From contig JAZNZE010000004.1 of the NCBI GenBank assembly GCA_045594785.1, positions 39,254 to 103,253 on the forward strand: 64,000 nucleotides of DNA, in the 5' to 3' direction. The stretch is from Eubacteriales bacterium (GTDB lineage Bacteria; Bacillota; Clostridia; Oscillospirales; CAG-272). Both the position numbers and the translations under genes were made by a program. Below the pieces are notes generated by a model. The model was not told where the DNA came from. It was given only the letters and a program-made list of their open reading frames with translations, and ran no database searches. Shown here one piece after another: positions 20,669 through 33,525 of the stretch (position 1 is its first letter; every line of letters starts with the position of its first letter).

Positions 20669-21895
20669 ATGAGAATAAAAACCAAAATCATTTCTGTTCT
20701 TTTGCTTTTCGTACTTGCTCTGTCGCTTTCCTCCTGCGTCTTTTACACCACCGTTTCGGATTTGACGGACAATGACGGCGGGCAGACGCCTGTCGGTGAC
20801 GTTACCATAAACGTTGACGAGGTTAAAAACCACGATATAAATATTAACAGCACCGAAAGCGGAAGCGAGATTGCGGCTGCAAAGGCGCTTATGTCCTCAG
20901 TCAGTATAAGAACCCCAAGCGCAAGCGGCTCGGGCGTAATTTTCAAATTGAGCGAGGATAAGAGCGAGGCATATATACTTACGAATTATCACGTCGTATA
21001 CGATTCCTCGACACGCCGCGTAAGCAGCAATATAAAGGTCTACCTTTACGGTATGGAAAGCTATCTTTACGGAACTGACGATTGCGCTATACCTGCGCAG
21101 TATATCGGCGGAACTGTAAAATACGACCTGGCGGTGCTTAAGGTTAGGGCAAGCAAGGTTCTGCTGGAAAGCAATGCGCGTGCCTGCGATTTTGCCGATT
21201 CAAACAAGGTTACTGTGCTTGAAACTGCCATTGCCGTAGGAAATGCGGCAGGCGCGGGAATCTCGGTTACTATGGGTAAGGTAAACGTGGAAAGCGAATA
21301 TATCGCGCTCCTCGCGGCTGACGAAAAAACCGAGCTTGAGCTGAGAGTTATGAGAACTGACGCTGCGGTAAACAGCGGAAATTCAGGCGGCGGACTTTTC
21401 AATTCAAAGGGCGAGCTTATAGGAATAGTAAACGCGAAGAGTGCAGCCTCCTCAACCGATAATATCGGATACGCAATTCCCTCGAACGTTGCAAAATATA
21501 TCGCAAACAACATAATGTACTACTGCAACGGAACGAACGATTACTACGCATACAGATGTATGCTCGGCATAAGCGTTACGGCAGATAAGCTTTATACCGA
21601 ATACGATGAAGAAACGGGTATTCTTTACCGTAAGGAAAGCGTGGTTGTTAGCTCGCAACCCCAAAAATCCGCGGCTGCGTTCGGCATTATTGCAGCGGGA
21701 GACGTTATTAACAGCATCACCATTGACGGTGAGGTTTACGAGGTAACGAGAATGTTCCACGTAGTTGACGCAATGTTTAACGCAAGAGTTACCAGCGAGG
21801 TCGTCGTGAATGTTACGCGTTCGGGTAATTCGCTTGACCTCACGATTCCTCTTGCAAATAAGGATATAGTGAACGCGGACAGCTCGGTAAATTAG
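20669..21895 (+). CDS. S1C (trypsin-like/HtrA-type) serine protease, lipoprotein
   Basis: Lipobox LSSC. The catalytic triad context is TNYHVV, YDLAVLKV, GNSGGGLF. Confidence 0.8.
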   Translation: MRIKTKIISVLLLFVLALSLSSCVFYTTVSDLTDNDGGQTPVGDVTINVDEVKNHDININSTESGSEIAAAKALMSSVSIRTPSASGSGVIFKLSEDKSEAYILTNYHVVYDSSTRRVSSNIKVYLYGMESYLYGTDDCAIPAQYIGGTVKYDLAVLKVRASKVLLESNARACDFADSNKVTVLETAIAVGNAAGAGISVTMGKVNVESEYIALLAADEKTELELRVMRTDAAVNSGNSGGGLFNSKGELIGIVNAKSAASSTDNIGYAIPSNVAKYIANNIMYYCNGTNDYYAYRCMLGISVTADKLYTEYDEETGILYRKESVVVSSQPQKSAAAFGIIAAGDVINSITIDGEVYEVTRMFHVVDAMFNARVTSEVVVNVTRSGNSLDLTIPLANKDIVNADSSVN

Positions 21896-21943
21896 GAATT
21901 AGGAAAGTTTAATTTTATAAAATTAAGAGAGAGTAAACGAAAT

Positions 21944-22160
21944 GGGCACGCGCGATAACGAAGGTTTTTCCGAAGTTGTCGATGCGTGCCCATAATGAAT
22001 TGCCCTTATGGGCATGAATTGGCTTACGCCGTGATTTGCACCGGTGGTGCATGAATTGCCTGCGGCATTAAAAACAGGGCAATTCAATTCATGAAAACGC
22101 AGTTTTCAAATCATGAAGACGAAAGGCTTCAATTCATGACGCAAGGCGTCAATTCATTAC
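21944..22160. repeat. modular hairpin / 8-mer array A (ATGAATTG x3 direct, then CAATTCAT x3 plus one degenerate copy, each separated by short hairpins)
   Basis: Leading hairpin gggcacgc...gcgtgccc (21944-21991). ATGAATTG at 21995, 22014 and 22051. CAATTCAT at 22085, 22130 and 22150, and CAAATCAT at 22107. Intervening mini-hairpins include tgccc/gggca, gcacc/ggtgc, gaaaac/gttttc and gacgc/gcgtc. Confidence 0.8.
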
Positions 22161-22317
22161 TATCGGGAATAATCTTTCCCAAAGCAACGCAAAAGCACTT
22201 ATGACAAACGATTTTTCGTTATCATAAGTGCTTTTTCTAAAACTTCGTTATGGGGCTTTCGCTAATGCTTACTCTCTCTTTTCTTTTATTGATTTTTCGT
22301 TGTGCCGAACGCTTGTA

Positions 22318-25140
22318 TTATTCTGTTCTGAGCGCTATTACGGGGTCTTTCTTTGCTGCGCTTCTTGCGGGAATAAGTCCCGAGATGCAGGTGAGAAGAA
22401 CGCTGAGCACTACGAGTATAATAGCCTGGCTTATGGGAAGCGCCGCTATGCGCGAGTATCCGATAAGAGGCGTGAGGATAAGGTTTACTATCACAGAGGC
22501 GAGATAGGTAAAGCCAACGCCGATAATTCCTGCCAGAAGTCCTATAATAAAGGTTTCCGCATTGAAGAGGTGGCTTACGTCCTTCTTTCTTCCTCCGAGC
22601 GAGCGTATAACGCCTATTTCCTTTATTCGCTCAACTACCGAAACGTAGGTTATAATTCCTATCATAACGGTTGAAACAACGAGTGAGATTGAGGTAAAGG
22701 CAACGAGCGCGTAGGTGATAACGTCTATCATAGTGTTTATCATATTAATGATAAGCTCAAGCGTGTCGGTGTAGGTAACCTTAATTCTGTCCTTTGCAAG
22801 CACCTCTTTGCCGTCAACCTCTATATATTCCGCATCGTGCCAGTCGTCAAGATACTTGGTGACAAGGCTCTTTTCGTCAAAGGATTTCGGATAGATAAGA
22901 ATATTGTTTGCAAGGTCGTTTCCGCCAAGGCTTCTGATAAGCGCATCACGGCTCTTAAGCTTCTCTGCCTCGGGGTCCTGAGCGCCGCCGCCCAGCATAG
23001 CGCCTATCATATTAGAGGCGGAGGAGGGGGGAGCGATGTATCCGATACCGTCTGCAAAATGCTGAGTTTCGTCACTGTCATTTGTGGGATCGTTGTAATC
23101 GTAGGTGTAGGTGTAGAGCATCCAGTATGCAGGAATTGTAAAGGATTCTCCGCCGAACTGCTTATCTCTTGAGCCCATTTCGGTCATAGAAGCTTCGCTT
23201 CTGAGATATTCGAGATAGCTTGAGGTCTTGTTGGTTTCAAGAATATGATTTGTAAGCGCCTCGGTGTAATAAATTCCGGAGGAAAGAGAGCCGTAGGAAA
23301 CGTTTTCCTTAGGAGTGAGGATTCCGACAACCTTAAGATTCACTCCGTTTTCCTTATTTTGAACGTTATCACCTGAGGAGGCGTATGCGTATCTGATTCC
23401 ATTAAGGAATCTGTCTCCGTTAAGCTTATCAGATTCGGTTGTGAACACCGAATCGGTGGGATACCACACGAATTCCTTGCCGAGAAGCTCTTCGTATTCA
23501 AAGTATTCGCGGTAAAGTGCCTTCATTGAAAAGTTTTCCTTGTCATCTGAGGTAGCCTTGTCGACTATTGCAAGGAATTCTTCCTGAGTATAATAGCCGA
23601 ATATCGCAAGCAGAAGGTCGGAAATCTCTTCATTTGGGTTAAGAACGAGCATTATTTCGTCTGCCTCGTCAGCAACCTCGCTGCCGCCGAGCAGGTCATA
23701 CTGCGAGAGTATGTAATCCGAGTTGTTCGGTGCCTGCTTCATAGAGGGAACGAGATAGGGAATAAACGAGGAATACTGCGCGTATTCGGTTTTTCCGAGT
23801 ATTGACGTGTAGTTGTCGATAAGACGCTTTACCGAAAGCTGCTGCTTTTCGGAGTTCTTGTCAAAAGAAAAATCGGTAAAGATATTAAGCGACATATCTA
23901 TTCCGTAGCTGAGAAGCATTGCCTCGTAGTTTTCCTTCGGCATAGACTTGACGTATTCAACGTATTCGGGGGTTATGGTATTTGCCGAGAAGAGACGGTT
24001 AAGGTTCTCGTTCATTTCGGCAAGTCTCTCGATCGTGCTGGTTATATAAACCTTGTCTGCAAGCTTTTCCTTGTCCTCTACGTCAGCGGCAGACATAAGC
24101 TCGGATACCGCAGAAGCGTCAAAGCCTGTTTCGGCAATCTCTATGGGGTTACCCGAAAGCATATCGTCCTGCATAGATGCAACGAATCCCTTGATACCCG
24201 CGGAGAAAGCAAGAACCATCGCTATACCGATAATACCTATAGAGCCAGCGATGCCGACCATTGTCGTGCGTCCCTTCTTGGATATAAGGTTTCTTGCGGA
24301 AAGCTTGAAGGCGGTAAGGAAGGACATTCTTGCCTTTTCCTTTTTACGCTTCTTTTTCTTGCTTACACCCTCGGCTGCCGCAGCCTCAAGCGCTGCTATC
24401 TCGGCTTCCTTTGCCTTGAGCTCCTCTTTGATTCTTTGGCACTCTGCTTCCTCCTCCTCGGCTGAGAAGGGGTTAGTGTCCTCAAGCACTTGTCCGTCAA
24501 GAAGCCTGATTATACGTGAGGAATACTGTTCGGCAATTTCGGGGTTGTGAGTGACCATAATAACAAGTCTCTCGCCCGAGATTTCTTTTATGAGGTCCAT
24601 TATCTGCTTGGAGGTAACGGTGTCAAGCGCTCCCGTGGGCTCGTCTGCAAGCAGGATTTCGGGGTCGTTTACAAGAGCTCTTGCAATAGCTACTCTCTGG
24701 CACTGACCACCCGAAAGCTGATTGGGGCGCTTGTAGTATTTGTCTGAAAGTCCCACCCTGTCAAGAGCGAGCTTTGCTTTTTTCGTTCTCTCCTCCTTGC
24801 TGATGCCTGCTATCGTGAGAGCAAGCTCAACGTTTCCAAGCACCGTCTGGTGAGGAATCAGGTTATAGCTCTGGAAGATAAAGCCTATTCTGTGGTTTCT
24901 GTAAACGTCCCAGTCTCTGTCCTTATAGAGCTTAGTGCTTCTTCCGGCAATAAGCAGGTCTCCCGATGTATAGTGGTCGAGACCGCCTATTATGTTAAGC
25001 ATTGTCGTTTTTCCGCAGCCTGACGGGCCGAGTATGGAAACGAATTCCTTTTGCCTGAAGGAAATATTAACGCCCTTCAGCGCTTGCACCGTTTCGGAAG
25101 CGGTAACGTAGTCCTTTGTTATGTTCTTTAATTGCAGCAT
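22318..25140 (-). CDS. fused ABC transporter ATP-binding protein / FtsX-MacB type permease
   Basis: N-terminal ATPase (GPSGCGKTT, LSGGQ, LLADEPT), then a Lys/Glu-rich coiled linker, then a permease with a very large extracytoplasmic segment and C-terminal FtsX-type helices. Confidence 0.85.
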   Translation of the reverse strand: MLQLKNITKDYVTASETVQALKGVNISFRQKEFVSILGPSGCGKTTMLNIIGGLDHYTSGDLLIAGRSTKLYKDRDWDVYRNHRIGFIFQSYNLIPHQTVLGNVELALTIAGISKEERTKKAKLALDRVGLSDKYYKRPNQLSGGQCQRVAIARALVNDPEILLADEPTGALDTVTSKQIMDLIKEISGERLVIMVTHNPEIAEQYSSRIIRLLDGQVLEDTNPFSAEEEEAECQRIKEELKAKEAEIAALEAAAAEGVSKKKKRKKEKARMSFLTAFKLSARNLISKKGRTTMVGIAGSIGIIGIAMVLAFSAGIKGFVASMQDDMLSGNPIEIAETGFDASAVSELMSAADVEDKEKLADKVYITSTIERLAEMNENLNRLFSANTITPEYVEYVKSMPKENYEAMLLSYGIDMSLNIFTDFSFDKNSEKQQLSVKRLIDNYTSILGKTEYAQYSSFIPYLVPSMKQAPNNSDYILSQYDLLGGSEVADEADEIMLVLNPNEEISDLLLAIFGYYTQEEFLAIVDKATSDDKENFSMKALYREYFEYEELLGKEFVWYPTDSVFTTESDKLNGDRFLNGIRYAYASSGDNVQNKENGVNLKVVGILTPKENVSYGSLSSGIYYTEALTNHILETNKTSSYLEYLRSEASMTEMGSRDKQFGGESFTIPAYWMLYTYTYDYNDPTNDSDETQHFADGIGYIAPPSSASNMIGAMLGGGAQDPEAEKLKSRDALIRSLGGNDLANNILIYPKSFDEKSLVTKYLDDWHDAEYIEVDGKEVLAKDRIKVTYTDTLELIINMINTMIDVITYALVAFTSISLVVSTVMIGIITYVSVVERIKEIGVIRSLGGRKKDVSHLFNAETFIIGLLAGIIGVGFTYLASVIVNLILTPLIGYSRIAALPISQAIILVVLSVLLTCISGLIPARSAAKKDPVIALRTE

Positions 25141-27271: not shown

Positions 27272-27579
27272 GTCAAAAGCGACCTGAACGCAAGCAGGGA
27301 AAGCGCGGTGTAATTCCGCCACAACAGCCATTACCGTCAAAGTCGGAATGCCTGTCGGTCGCGATTCGGATTAAATTCCTTGGGTAAAAAGAGGGGATTC
27401 CCGGAGCTGATGGTTTATGGGTGAGTCGTAGCCGAAGAGACCGAGCAAATAAGTCTTTCTTTGGCTATAGGATTTTTCGGCTTTCGCGAGGCTGGCAGGC
27501 AGTCTTGCTTTGCCGCGTTTCCGCCTTGCCGTACTTTGCCTTTTCAGCCTTTGAGTCTCCTCGGCTCAAAGGCTTTTTA
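27272..27579 (+). promoter_or_regulatory. cobalamin (B12) riboswitch with terminator expression platform
   Basis: The aptamer core at 27279-27362 is closed by gcgacc/ggtcgc. It contains AGGGAAAGCGCGGTGTAATTCCGCC (GGGAA..GGTG.AA.TCC core) and the B12-box-like AGTCGGAATGCCTGTC. An intrinsic terminator follows at 27546-27579 (agcctttgag/ctcaaaggct + TTTTT), just upstream of the RBS of the next gene. Confidence 0.7.
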
Positions 27580-30931: not shown

Positions 30932-32809
30932 ATGAAAAACGGATTTTTGAAAATCGCTCTTATAAGCCCGCAAATTCGGGTTGCAGACCCGATATATAAC
31001 GCTGTGCTTTCTGTAAATTCGGCAAGAGAAGCCGCTGGGCAGGGGGCAAAGGTGCTTCTTTTTCCCGAGCTTACTCTTTCGGGCGCGACCTCCGGCGACC
31101 TCTTCTTTCAGTCTGCGCTTATAGAAAAGTGCTTTGCCGCACTTGAAAAATACGCTGAGGAAACCGCAGAGCTTGACCTGATAAGCTTTATCGGATTTCC
31201 TCTTAAATACGGTTCTAAGCTTTATGACGCGGTTGCCGCTGTTTCTCACGGAGAAATTCTCGGCATATCCACTCGCGAGCCTATGGGAAATGAAAGATAT
31301 TTTTCGGATTTCGGAGAGGCTGAATATATAAATCTTTTCGGTAAAGAGGTTCTTGTCGGCGAGAATATTATTTATTCGCTTTCGGGCACGGCTGCAAGGC
31401 TTTTCGTTGAGATTGGCGATAATGCTCACTTCGCAATTTCTCCTGCCGCTTATGCTGCAACCTCGGGCGCGAATATTATACTCGGTGCGATGGCTTCTCC
31501 CGAATATCTTACCCTTAAGGAGAGGGAAGAGCGCCGAATTCTCTCTGTGAGTGAGAGGCTTTCTTGCGCGTATGCGGTATGCTCTGCGTCCTCTTACGAG
31601 AGCGGAACTGACGGTGTTTATGCCGCAAGGCGCATTATATGCGAGGTTGGAGAGACCGTTTCTTCTGCGCCGCTGTTCTCTTCCGATATAGTATACGGAG
31701 TAATAGATACCGAAAAGGCTGACGCGCTGAGAAGCAGAAGAGCCGATTTTGATTCGCTTTGCCGCGAATATGCGGTTGTTGATTTTTCACTTTCGGAAGA
31801 CGTTATAAATCCTGCTCCGCCCAAGAGATTTCCGTTTATCCCCGATACCCAGGCGGAAAGGGAGGCGGCTTCCGCTCTTGCGCTTGCTATTCAGGCGCGC
31901 GCTCTTGCGGGCAGAATTGAGAGGGCAGGAGCAAAATGCTGTGTTCTTGGCGTTTCGGGCGGACTTGATTCAACGCTTGCCGTTCTTGTGTGCGAGAGAG
32001 CGATGGAGCTTCTCGGACGCGAAAAGACCGATGTTATAGCGATAACTATGCCCTGCTTTGGAACAAGCGAGCGCACTAAAGGGAATGCTTTGCTTCTTGC
32101 CGAGGAGCTTGGGCTTTCGGTACGCACTATTGATATAAAGAATGCTGTAAATCAGCATTTTGCGGATATAGGACAGGACGAAAACACCTATGACGTTGTT
32201 TATGAGAATGCGCAGGCGCGTGAGCGCACGCAGATTCTTATGGACGTTGCAAACAAGGAGGGCGGAATAGTTGTCGGAACAGGTGACCTTTCCGAGCTTG
32301 CTCTCGGCTTTGCTACCTATAACGGCGACCAGATGTCGATGTATTCGGTAAACGGCTCCGTGCCGAAAACGCTTATGCGCGAGATTATCAGATGCACGGC
32401 TAAATCTGCTTACAAAAAGGGCAGAGAAAATCTTGCAAAGGTGCTTCTTGACGTTATAGAAACGCCCGTAAGCCCCGAGCTTCTTCCCACCGAGGACGGC
32501 AAGGAAAACGCTCAGTATACGGAGACGATAGTCGGCCCTTATGAGCTTCACGACTTTTTCCTTTATTACACTGTTAAGTACGGATTCGGTGCTGAAAAGG
32601 TGAAGAGGCTTGCGCTTCTCGCATTCGGTGATAAGTACGCAGAGGACGAGGTCTCTGCTTACCTTAAAAAATTTCTTACCAGACTTGTAACTCAGCAGTT
32701 CAAACGCTCCTGTATGCCTGACGGCCCGCTTGTGACTGAAATTTCATTCTCTCCGAGAGGAAGTTTCGTAATGCCTTCAGACGCTAGCGTTGAGGCATTA
32801 CGAAGTTAA
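30932..32809 (+). CDS. nadE: glutamine-dependent NAD+ synthase
   Basis: 625 aa with an N-terminal CN-hydrolase (glutaminase) domain and a C-terminal NAD synthetase domain carrying the PP-loop VLGVSGGLDSTLA. Confidence 0.9.
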   Translation: MKNGFLKIALISPQIRVADPIYNAVLSVNSAREAAGQGAKVLLFPELTLSGATSGDLFFQSALIEKCFAALEKYAEETAELDLISFIGFPLKYGSKLYDAVAAVSHGEILGISTREPMGNERYFSDFGEAEYINLFGKEVLVGENIIYSLSGTAARLFVEIGDNAHFAISPAAYAATSGANIILGAMASPEYLTLKEREERRILSVSERLSCAYAVCSASSYESGTDGVYAARRIICEVGETVSSAPLFSSDIVYGVIDTEKADALRSRRADFDSLCREYAVVDFSLSEDVINPAPPKRFPFIPDTQAEREAASALALAIQARALAGRIERAGAKCCVLGVSGGLDSTLAVLVCERAMELLGREKTDVIAITMPCFGTSERTKGNALLLAEELGLSVRTIDIKNAVNQHFADIGQDENTYDVVYENAQARERTQILMDVANKEGGIVVGTGDLSELALGFATYNGDQMSMYSVNGSVPKTLMREIIRCTAKSAYKKGRENLAKVLLDVIETPVSPELLPTEDGKENAQYTETIVGPYELHDFFLYYTVKYGFGAEKVKRLALLAFGDKYAEDEVSAYLKKFLTRLVTQQFKRSCMPDGPLVTEISFSPRGSFVMPSDASVEALRS

Positions 32810-33170
32810 ATCCACACTAACGCGTGGAATAAATCTGCTACGCAGATGAAGTCCTCGCAAGGCTCGGATGAAGTCGCTGCGGCGATGTGTGGATTTAACA
32901 AAACCGAAACGGAGTTTCGACTTCATCTGCCAAAGGCAGACTTCATCACGAAGTGACTTCATCGTGCGTCAAAGCACGATTTCATTAAAGCTGCTTTATA
33001 GAATGAAAAAATCCACACTAACGCGTGGAATAAATCTGCTGCGCAGATGAAGTCCTCGCAAGGCTCGGATGAAGTCGCTGCGGCGATGTGTGGATTTAAC
33101 AAAACCGAAACGGAGTTTCGACTTCATCTGCCAAAGGCAGACTTCATCGTGCGTCAAAGCACGACTTCAC
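32808..33170. repeat. modular hairpin / 8-mer array B, tandemly duplicated with a 200-bp period (ATGAAGTC direct copies, then GACTTCAT inverted copies, separated by short hairpins)
   Basis: Copy 1 spans 32808-33007 and copy 2 spans 33008-33170. In copy 1, ATGAAGTC is at 32846 and 32868. GACTTCAT is at 32919, 32939 and 32955, with a degenerate copy at 32978. The flanking arms AAATCCACAC (32808) and GTGTGGATTT (32887) are complementary. Copy 2 is identical except for one loop SNP and the precise loss of one 16-nt hairpin+8-mer module. Confidence 0.9.
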
Positions 33171-33183
33171 TAAAGGAGTTTTT

Positions 33184-33525
33184 ATGAAAGAAAACAAGCT
33201 TGCGGATTTGACAATGGATTTTGCAGTAAACGCACTGCGCCTTGCAGACGAAATTGAGGGGCACTATGCTTTGAAAAATCAGTTTGAGCGTTCTGCTACA
33301 AGCATTGGGGCAAATCTTCGTGAAGCTAACTATGCTCAAAGCAATGCGGATTTTTTGTCAAAGCTGCAAATTGCTTTAAAAGAATGCTATGAAACGGAAT
33401 ATTGGCTTGAGCTTTTTGTTAGGTCTAATCTTTTGCCTGAGGATAAAGTCAAGGTTCTGATGCACGACTGCGGAGAAATCCGCCGCATTCTTGTCTCTTC
33501 TGTTAGAACACTAAAATCAAAATAA
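33184..33525 (+). CDS. four-helix-bundle protein (23S rRNA intervening-sequence protein / Avd-like family)
   Basis: 113 aa with the family pattern MDFAVNALRLADEI...LKNQFERSATSIGANLREANYAQSNADFLSKLQIALKECYETEYWLEL. AAAGGAG RBS. Confidence 0.8.
   Translation: MKENKLADLTMDFAVNALRLADEIEGHYALKNQFERSATSIGANLREANYAQSNADFLSKLQIALKECYETEYWLELFVRSNLLPEDKVKVLMHDCGEIRRILVSSVRTLKSK

Follow-up and report, generated by a model that had tools for sequence, protein, structure and literature searches.

The 64,000-nucleotide stretch of contig JAZNZE010000004.1 from an Eubacteriales bacterium that was analysed here (the window) includes a 217-bp element at positions 21944-22160, designated array A, in which copies of a short sequence word alternate with small hairpins. 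Array A is located in the 3' untranslated region (UTR) of an S1C protease gene, between the protease gene and a convergent ABC-transporter gene. It is a real, non-random element and a member of a widespread repeat family that is defined by its architecture, of which the Gut-1 RNA motif (RF01706) is a known fragment. Array A is very probably a solo (gene-less) copy of the dispersed, polar and nearly dyad-symmetric word-and-hairpin arrays of gut Clostridia that are linked to genes of protein family PF05635. The best overall explanation combines this assignment with the display of the words on a folded strand to a PF05635 oligomer, and the chance that the combination holds is about even.

Architecture of array A and its family

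The letters of the 217-bp element were confirmed as they had been given in the original prediction, which described three forward copies of an 8-mer followed by four inverted copies, with a mini-hairpin between every two. The word of the array A subfamily (hereafter A-type) is AUGAAUUG, alternating with hairpins. Exact copies of the forward word, ATGAATTG, start at 21995, 22014 and 22051, and exact copies of the reverse word, CAATTCAT, start at 22085, 22130 and 22150. Six of the seven exact ATGAATTG/CAATTCAT matches in the 64-kb window are packed into 163 bp, as compared with an average of 2.5 in whole-window shuffles. Every one of the spacer stem-loops listed in the prediction was found (tgccc-ttat-gggca, (t)gcacc-ggt-ggtgc(a), (t)gaaaac-gca-gttttc(a) and (t)gacgc-aag-gcgtc(a)), and the long opening hairpin (hp0; 48 nt, + strand) was located at 21944-21991, where it abuts the first word and its arms, ATGGGCACGC and GCGTGCCCAT, pair at 10/10 positions. 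The forward-then-reverse grammar was thereby upheld, but the copy numbers were amended by homology, as the A-type consensus obtained by alignment with homologues has four words in the forward half and five in the reverse half. Two of these are decayed in array A, namely the third forward word (GTGATTTG, 22031-22038) and one reverse word (AAATCAT, 22108-22114), and the reverse words consist of a double copy, CAATTCAATTCAT, at 22080-22092, the degenerate AAATCAT and two intact copies.

As defined by homology, array A proper is the unit AATGAATTG...CAATTCATT at 21994-22158 (+), which has 70-90% identical copies at non-orthologous sites, the similarity stopping at the first and last word. The forward half (21995-22058, +) includes words at 21995-22002, 22014-22021, 22031-22038 and 22051-22058, with mini-hairpins at 22001-22014, 22021-22030, 22037-22051 and 22057-22067, the last of which extends past the last word. 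In the reverse half (22080-22157, +), the double and the degenerate word are followed by the words at 22130-22137 and 22150-22157, and the mini-hairpins are at 22092-22108, 22114-22131 (one A/G mismatch) and 22137-22151. Array A therefore has the arrangement by which membership of the family was judged, that is forward words followed by their exact reverse complements with a near-perfect palindrome in each gap. A coding role for array A was considered, given that the words contain ATG, and was rejected because the distances between the words do not keep to multiples of three and ATG is absent from other word types.

The source genome (2.34 Mb in 71 contigs, 43.5% GC), in which array A lies at C4:61197-61413, was searched for the pattern of words and hairpins followed by the reverse complement, as had been proposed. 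A k-mer scan identified ~24 arrays of the same grammar that are built on at least ten different words, namely ATATCATC, GCGATAT, GTGAAGT, TGAAATC, TGAATTG, TGAAGTC, ATGAAAT, GTGAAAT, GTTATGA and ATGAAGC. The word is 7-9 nt long, constant inside an array and different between subfamilies, and forward and reverse words are always exact complements. A complete array runs hairpin, word, hairpin, word and so on to a centre, and from there reverse word, hairpin, reverse word, where the hairpins are near-perfect palindromes of free sequence. Such arrays are also present in most genus genomes and in several sister families, and the suggestion that the family is defined by architecture and not by sequence was thus borne out. 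Given the genome-wide and genus-wide recurrence, together with the covariation described below, an origin of the pattern as a chance or local-duplication artefact is ruled out with near certainty. The sibling with the same grammar and a different word that had been placed at 32808-33170 is present as array B (32808-33180), in which two tandem arrays immediately precede a gene (33184-33525) encoding a 113-amino-acid PF05635 protein. Array B and its PF05635 gene sit between nadE and pth.

The original prediction recognised no Rfam class in these elements. For the family this was not supported, as the Gut-1 RNA motif is what makes up the halves of sibling arrays. The motif was published as a probable non-coding RNA from human-gut metagenomes (Weinberg et al. 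2010, PMC2864571). The Gut-1 model gave 37 matches in the source genome at E <= 1, of which four, on contigs C60 (76.8 bits), C48 (59.6), C25 (54.4) and C19 (51.1), are over the gathering score of 50 bits, while array B scored 44.9 and 32.9 bits. Gut-1 matches were found in 21 of 31 related genomes, at 0-41 per genome, with a patchy distribution within the genus. There was no Gut-1 match over array A, either in 21800-22350 at E <= 10 or for the corresponding coordinates in the whole-genome search, and array A is hence a word-variant relative and not a detectable Gut-1 member. Array A has the at least three short hairpins and the UGAAAU-type linker that characterise the Gut-1 structure, with AUGAAUUG as a variant of the (G/A)UGAAAU linker. 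No other Rfam family matched array A at its gathering score, the only signals being weak microRNA and snoRNA noise. In the (G/A)UGAA(A/G)U subfamilies, one half of the array is the Gut-1 motif, whereas array A represents the AUGAAUUG subfamily. A point missed in the prediction is that the forward-then-reverse order of words is invariant under reverse complementation, and 'convergent Gut-1 pairs' therefore follow from the grammar itself. The prediction also overlooked the PF05635 partner genes and the polarity helix that are described below.

When folded as RNA, the + strand of array A gave -91.4 kcal/mol, with z = -6.46 relative to shuffles, and the corresponding values were z = -5.83 for the RNA of the - strand and z = -6.72 for DNA. 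It had been proposed that the element can fold as a row of local hairpins or as a zipper. The minimum-energy fold is indeed a zipper with branching hairpins, and the row is also energetically available. For the 165-nt core, the energies were -43.9 kcal/mol with local hairpins only, -50.6 kcal/mol with one half closed by a long-range helix and -57.2 kcal/mol with the full word:reverse-word zipper and its branching hairpins. Minimum free energies of whole arrays compared between the two strands showed small, inconsistent differences.

Covariation was assessed in an alignment of 14 A-type arrays with the structure taken from array A. In this alignment, 89% of the cells are paired, as compared with 24-43% when the partners were slid, and double-sided changes occupy 51 cells against 19 +/- 3 in shuffles, none of 500 shuffles being as high. 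The covariation score was 0.225, against 0.081 for shuffled and <=0.049 for slid partners. The A-type stems vary and covary, and the words are invariant. The same was seen on a smaller scale in orthologous solo copies at one site in three genomes (C30 of the source genome, L036 and L038), in which the words are kept and the stems differ by paired changes. As indicated by these comparisons, the structure of the arrays is evidently under constraint.

A further structural element is a long-range helix of 10-14 bp, designated P1, in which the first word and the 5' arm of the first mini-hairpin pair with the centre and the first reverse word. Array A includes such a helix enclosing one half, with the 5' strand TGAATTGCCCT at 21996-22006 (+) complementary at 11/11 positions to the 3' strand AGGGCAATTCA at 22076-22086 (+). 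As P1 and the first mini-hairpin share bases, the two are mutually exclusive. P1 covaries within the A-type (CCC/GGG versus CAACC/GGTTG), being 99.3% paired as CG, AU or GC, and its equivalent recurs in other word types with wholly different sequences. A census was made by a longest-inverted-repeat search, as extension from exact words worked for the A-type only. In 13 of 25 gene-linked arrays of other word types, P1 was the longest long-range repeat and enclosed the half further from the gene. The same was true of 13 of 18 A-type arrays, and in one array the helix enclosed the opposite half. By enclosing one half, the predicted helix gives the arrays a polarity.

Dispersal and the PF05635 partner gene

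A DNA search of 60 genus genomes was carried out with 21500-22700 of the window as the query. The ABC-transporter flank matched at 65-78% identity, and query positions 495-659 (window 21994-22158) matched at up to 87-90% identity on other contigs, often several times per genome. A-type arrays are present in ~25 genus genomes, with the copies distributed over ~8 unrelated flank contexts. The similarity between them starts at AATGAATTG and stops at CAATTCAT(T), the ends being sharp, and no target duplication was visible in alignments that included the flanks. At most A-type sites, a hairpin of unrelated sequence abuts the first word, and at L027a-c and L029 the nearest hairpin is further upstream; the sequence of the opening hairpin is not conserved across A-type sites. 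At L027 (G050:C45:32500-38060), three A-type arrays lie within 3.5 kb, with genes for an alpha/beta hydrolase-like protein, a leucine-rich-repeat lipoprotein-like protein and a helix-turn-helix protein between them. This trio suggests local clustering of solo copies.

A check for a protein family that co-occurs with the arrays had also been proposed, and PF05635 genes were found to track them. The open reading frame (ORF) after array B belongs to PF05635 (1e-24). Among 31 genomes, Gut-1 and PF05635 were both present in 19, Gut-1 only in two, PF05635 only in two and neither in eight. In 12 sister families, for each of which one genome was sampled, both features were present in five and neither in six. 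An exact-word array lies just upstream of 63 of the 83 PF05635 genes sampled with enough upstream DNA, and decayed arrays are visible by eye at others. When word type was placed on the PF05635 protein tree, 16 changes were required for 16 labels, as compared with 24.2 after shuffling (0 of 200 shuffles as low), and related words occupy neighbouring protein clades. Since linkage and common descent suffice to produce such a match, it shows that the cassettes of array and gene evolve as units and does not show binding.

The PF05635 protein matches PDB entry 2RLD, which has five chains, at 7.8e-29. The family, which is annotated as '23S rRNA intervening-sequence protein', is held to resemble Avd, a protein of diversity-generating retroelements (DGRs) (PMC10053308), and has been noted inside cas loci (PMC3936711), whereas a literature search found no paper that links PF05635 to HEPN nucleases.

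Complete A-type cassettes, in which 20-42 nt separate an A-type array from the A-type PF05635 gene behind it, were found in L035, L053 and L118-L121, and the A-type gene clade (at least 74% identity) is represented in 7 of the 60 genus genomes. The source genome does not encode an A-type PF05635 protein, the best match being 51% identical, and array A is therefore an orphan, or solo, copy. Directly downstream of array A there is no ORF, and hence no PF05635 gene of the kind that follows complete arrays.

Folded state and transcription of the arrays

The strong fold and the covariation could also be explained if the arrays were structured RNA. Array A, in the 3' UTR of the protease gene, would then act in cis as an exonuclease barrier, a processing site or a bidirectional transcription insulator beside terminators, and in complete cassettes the array would be a leader or intercistronic RNA of the PF05635 gene. 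Besides the fold (z = -6.5) and the covariation, the location of array A is in line with this alternative, as it lies between the protease stop codon and the first same-strand terminator-like hairpin (22191-22235) and is therefore probably transcribed as 3' UTR. The same may be said of the enrichment of arrays between convergent genes, which flank 7-8 of the 17-19 source-genome arrays having two flanking ORFs and recall 3' stabilisers of the kind resembling repetitive extragenic palindromic (REP) sequences.

The composition of the stems and loops bears on this question. A count over 280 distinct spacer hairpins, drawn from 80 arrays whose genes set the orientation, gave 1,355 Watson-Crick pairs against 24 internal mismatches (G.T 9, A.C 3, other 12), so that ~98% of positions are Watson-Crick. 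The excess of G.T over A.C on the gene-sense strand, 9 to 3, is in the direction expected of an RNA, without reaching significance (p = 0.15). Functional RNAs commonly contain G.U pairs, and the near absence of wobble pairs from the arrays (0.65% of stem positions) speaks against a structured RNA. A wobble bias seen at first, with T.G in forward halves and C.A in reverse halves, was an artefact of word ends counted in the stems, and counts restricted to the spacers are unbiased. Loops of the first half are 63% pyrimidine (TTC, TGC, TTT) and those of the second half 37% (GAA, AAA, GCA). The loops are mirror-symmetric, as exact complements occur at similar frequencies (p = 1e-9, calculated over copies that are not independent). 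The grammar and the loop composition are thus identical on both strands, which likewise does not favour an RNA. UNCG and GNRA tetraloops were considered as marks of one strand and were discarded, with counts of 5 versus 0 and 4 versus 7, respectively; most loops are triloops of perfect palindromes.

Two promoter layouts were distinguished among 56 cassettes. In 23, which include all A-type (TGAATTG-type) cassettes, the distance from the last word to the ATG does not exceed 45 nt, and a ribosome-binding site, but no promoter, lies between array and ORF. The gene in these cassettes must be read through the array, as a leader RNA would require. The gap is longer in the other 33, and 25 of these have TGnTATAAT, mostly ~30 nt before the ATG and often behind a tRNA gene and its terminator. 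With a promoter between array and gene, the array is outside the mRNA of the gene in these 25 cassettes, contrary to what is expected of a leader. Watson-Crick stems, mirror loops and downstream promoters are hints that the array need not be the mRNA leader of the gene, and structured RNA, the main alternative, is regarded as a possible but rather unlikely explanation of the arrays.

The mechanism preferred here, which is put forward tentatively, is that the words are displayed to a PF05635 oligomer on a folded single strand. The array would act in the form of extruded DNA or of RNA, with the hairpins as structural spacers that would present the repeated words, or stacked word:reverse-word zipper helices, to the oligomeric protein. 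Such a display may be likened to the repeated sites that serve a ring-shaped binder. The word-protein interaction would serve regulation of the cassette, its spread, or both, and solo copies such as array A would be candidates for left-over or independently spread binding modules. Locally, array A would at most add a very stable structure to the 3' UTR. It is conceivable, though doubtful, that the words are specific recognition sites for oligomeric PF05635 and that Gut-1 arrays and PF05635 form an unrecognised self-propagating or self-regulating cassette partnership.

Several points weigh against PF05635-linked display and against array A as an inserted solo copy. The connection between protein and array is one of linkage and co-occurrence, and common descent of a linked cassette would explain it too. 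PF05635 is not known to bind nucleic acids in a sequence-specific manner, and published work on Avd reportedly describes non-specific nucleic-acid binding. Solo A-type arrays are found in ~18 genomes, the source genome included, that have no A-type gene. The cognate protein would therefore not be needed to keep the arrays, with the proviso that the assemblies are incomplete and arrays often end contigs. The 23 of 56 cassettes that are transcribed only through the array, among them all those of the A-type, leave room for an RNA role. Finally, since no close-strain empty site was found, 'insertion' at the array A locus is deduced from one relative with 69% protein identity.

Genomic sites and comparison with known systems

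Array A is surrounded by nested inverted repeats. The outer arms, AAGAGAGAGTAA at 21925-21936 and TTACTCTCTCTT at 22269-22280, are 332 nt apart and pair at 12/12 positions, and the 3' arm is followed by the T-rich run TTTCTTTTATTGATTTTT. In the second layer, 21950-21967 in the 5' half of hp0 pairs at 15/18 positions with its distal partner AAAACTTCGTTATGGGGC at 22239-22256. A terminator-like hairpin, AAAAGCACTTATGACAA...TTATCATAAGTGCTTTT (22191-22235), whose arms are 16/17 complementary and which has T-runs after it on both strands, lies between array A and the ABC-transporter gene. L001 was the sole relative found to share the protease/ABC synteny. The protease/ABC intergenic region with array A is 422 bp, as compared with ~100 bp in L001, which has a simple terminator only. 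Given this difference, the 12/12 outer arms and the T-run after the 3' arm, the nested inverted repeats may possibly be a terminator stem that was split by the array now filling its loop. The search for an empty site in close strains was negative, with no identical protease protein on record and one metagenome scan giving relatives at 39-46% identity. No promoter was detected in 21800-22400 by a simple consensus scan.

The terminator-like hairpin beside array A (22181-22239) is itself dispersed, with 82-93% identical copies on unrelated contigs in at least ten genus genomes. A second recurrent element adjoins several arrays and consists of a hairpin, AGAAAGAGAGAAC...GTTCTCTCTTTCT, with a variable loop and the conserved flank CTGCTTGTAATATGGGTTTGGGCTTAGC. 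It was found in the source genome at C25:19671-19750, C29:4580-4660, C33:11860-11960 and C54:37710-37800, and the outer inverted repeat of array A (AAGAGAGAGTAA/TTACTCTCTCTT) resembles it. Elsewhere in the window, an AdoCbl-II (cobalamin) riboswitch aptamer at 27281-27360 (+), with 50.7 bits against a gathering score of 36.5, is the only over-threshold Rfam match.

The 3' end of the rRNA methyltransferase gene rlmD (L090-L108 in relatives; C42:56700-57187 in the source genome) is a hot spot, where arrays of three word types share one starting point. The first arm of the hairpin that precedes them is formed by the last conserved codons of the gene, and the second arm mirrors the synonymous codons of the own genome (GAAAGTG/CACTTTC, GAATCTG/CAGATTC), while rlmD genes without an array lack the second arm. 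This arm pattern shows that the opening hairpin belongs functionally to the array. In L095, where half an array is fused to the 3' part of a PF05635 gene in a decayed cassette, the arm fits the codons of another genome, and L107 has a spare copy of the rlmD gene end. The A-type array at the rlmD site is accompanied by the PF05635 gene in L035 and L053 and stands alone in L041/L092. The rlmD pattern is compatible with two readings, site-specific capture at the ends of conserved genes or ongoing correction of the palindromes.

These observations raise the alternative of a recombination or attachment site, resembling that of integrons or of integrative mobile elements exploiting Xer (IMEX). A recombinase acting in trans on folded DNA would use the words as core sites, the arrays would mark capture junctions at conserved gene 3' ends (tRNA, rlmD), and array A would be an empty or relic junction. 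Such a role would account for cassettes lying exactly at the rlmD 3' end and behind tRNA genes in many genomes, for the three word types at one rlmD position, and for the arm that complements the own genome's codons. The spare gene end in L107, the A-type array with and without its gene at one site, and the sharp ends without target duplication agree with it as well. However, no recombinase gene was seen beside any cassette inspected, and the differences in word between subfamilies of one genome would demand many recombinase specificities. Furthermore, no excised or empty-site pairs were found, and array A is at neither a tRNA gene nor an rlmD end. A recombination site is therefore considered improbable.

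The four ATATCATC-type arrays of the source genome (C13:46273, C15:4846, C18:212 and C34:20367) are all directly beside a tRNA gene and terminator, as are many cassettes of relatives. Arrays are also present at the very ends of contigs C12, C17, C35, C39, C42, C55 and C60. Arrays break short-read assemblies of gut Clostridia in this way, and copy number, possibly together with some partner genes, is therefore under-counted.

Of the known systems with which the arrays were compared, clustered regularly interspaced short palindromic repeats (CRISPR) are defined by direct repeats of 23-50 nt, all in the same orientation, and by unique spacers that are similar in length. The 8-nt words of array A, half of which are inverted, are separated by palindromes of 10-30 nt, and array A is therefore not a CRISPR array. 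Integron attC sites have R''-L''...L'-R' boxes and extrahelical bases, whereas the array hairpins are perfect and without conserved bulges. BOX elements of Streptococcus pneumoniae (boxA-boxB(n)-boxC) have variable internal modules, complementary ends and the potential to form a long stem-loop, as do the arrays. Their modules are 45-59 nt of conserved sequence, in contrast to the 8-nt word and free palindrome that make up an array module.

The REP sequences of E. coli and Pseudomonas, with the BIME and REPIN arrangements, are also extragenic palindromic inverted doublets of high copy number, found at 3' ends and between convergent genes and associated with one protein family. It was considered whether the arrays are selfish repeats of this type, spread by a RAYT-like (Y1, HUH) transposase. 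The arrays share with REPs the extragenic location, the multiple palindromic copies in inverted doublets and the enrichment between convergent genes, and the source genome has one Y1_Tnp gene. However, the array-rich genomes G003, G018, G021, G030 and G010 have no Y1_Tnp match, and G028 has five Y1_Tnp genes and one array match. In REPs it is the palindrome that is conserved, whereas the conserved part of the arrays is the linker word and their palindromes vary. The arrays also lack a GTAG-type foot, and the associated gene encodes a four-helix-bundle protein without known nuclease activity. As the distribution of Y1_Tnp (PF01797) does not track the arrays and there is no conserved palindrome, the earlier exclusion of REP/BIME is supported, and spread by a RAYT-like transposase is disfavoured as very unlikely.

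The PF05635-linked arrays have a further parallel in the ORF-bearing intervening sequences (IVSs) of 23S rRNA and the Avd genes of DGRs (PF05635 / cd16375; PMC10053308), as the partner gene belongs to PF05635 and is a small gene placed within structured nucleic acid, for example in a hairpin loop or at the end of a gene. Array A differs in lying outside rRNA genes and carrying no ORF. Neither a reverse transcriptase nor a template repeat was seen beside the cassettes inspected, and no description of word-hairpin arrays at IVS or DGR loci was found in the searchable literature.

Among the closest known systems is Gut-1 RNA, which occurs in the same gut habitat and follows the same grammar, with a conserved linker of the (G/A)UGAAAU type connecting three or four short hairpins whose sequence is free. 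Array A differs from it in its word, AUGAAUUG, and in having no Gut-1 match. Gut-1 has been in Rfam since 2010 as a 'certain RNA' without an organism, partner or function, and PF05635 proteins are common, scattered and unexplained. If correct, the PF05635-word partnership would give two long-standing orphans a function at once. This work adds the counts of wobble pairs and loop composition, the helix that gives the arrays their polarity, the division of cassettes by promoter layout and, for array A, its status as an orphan and the context of its insertion. Array A shows that the Gut-1 grammar extends to words that are invisible to the Rfam model, that the unit proper is polar and comprises two halves whose words are complementary, and that arrays persist and spread without their gene. 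The Watson-Crick stems, mirror loops and downstream promoters put in question whether Gut-1 is a simple small RNA. Gut-1 as published is a single 77-nt half, a stand-alone small RNA recovered from metagenomes only (PMC2864571), whereas the arrays described here are two-halved and polar, have complementary words and a long-range helix, are built on many different words, number tens per genome and are accompanied by a family of partner genes.

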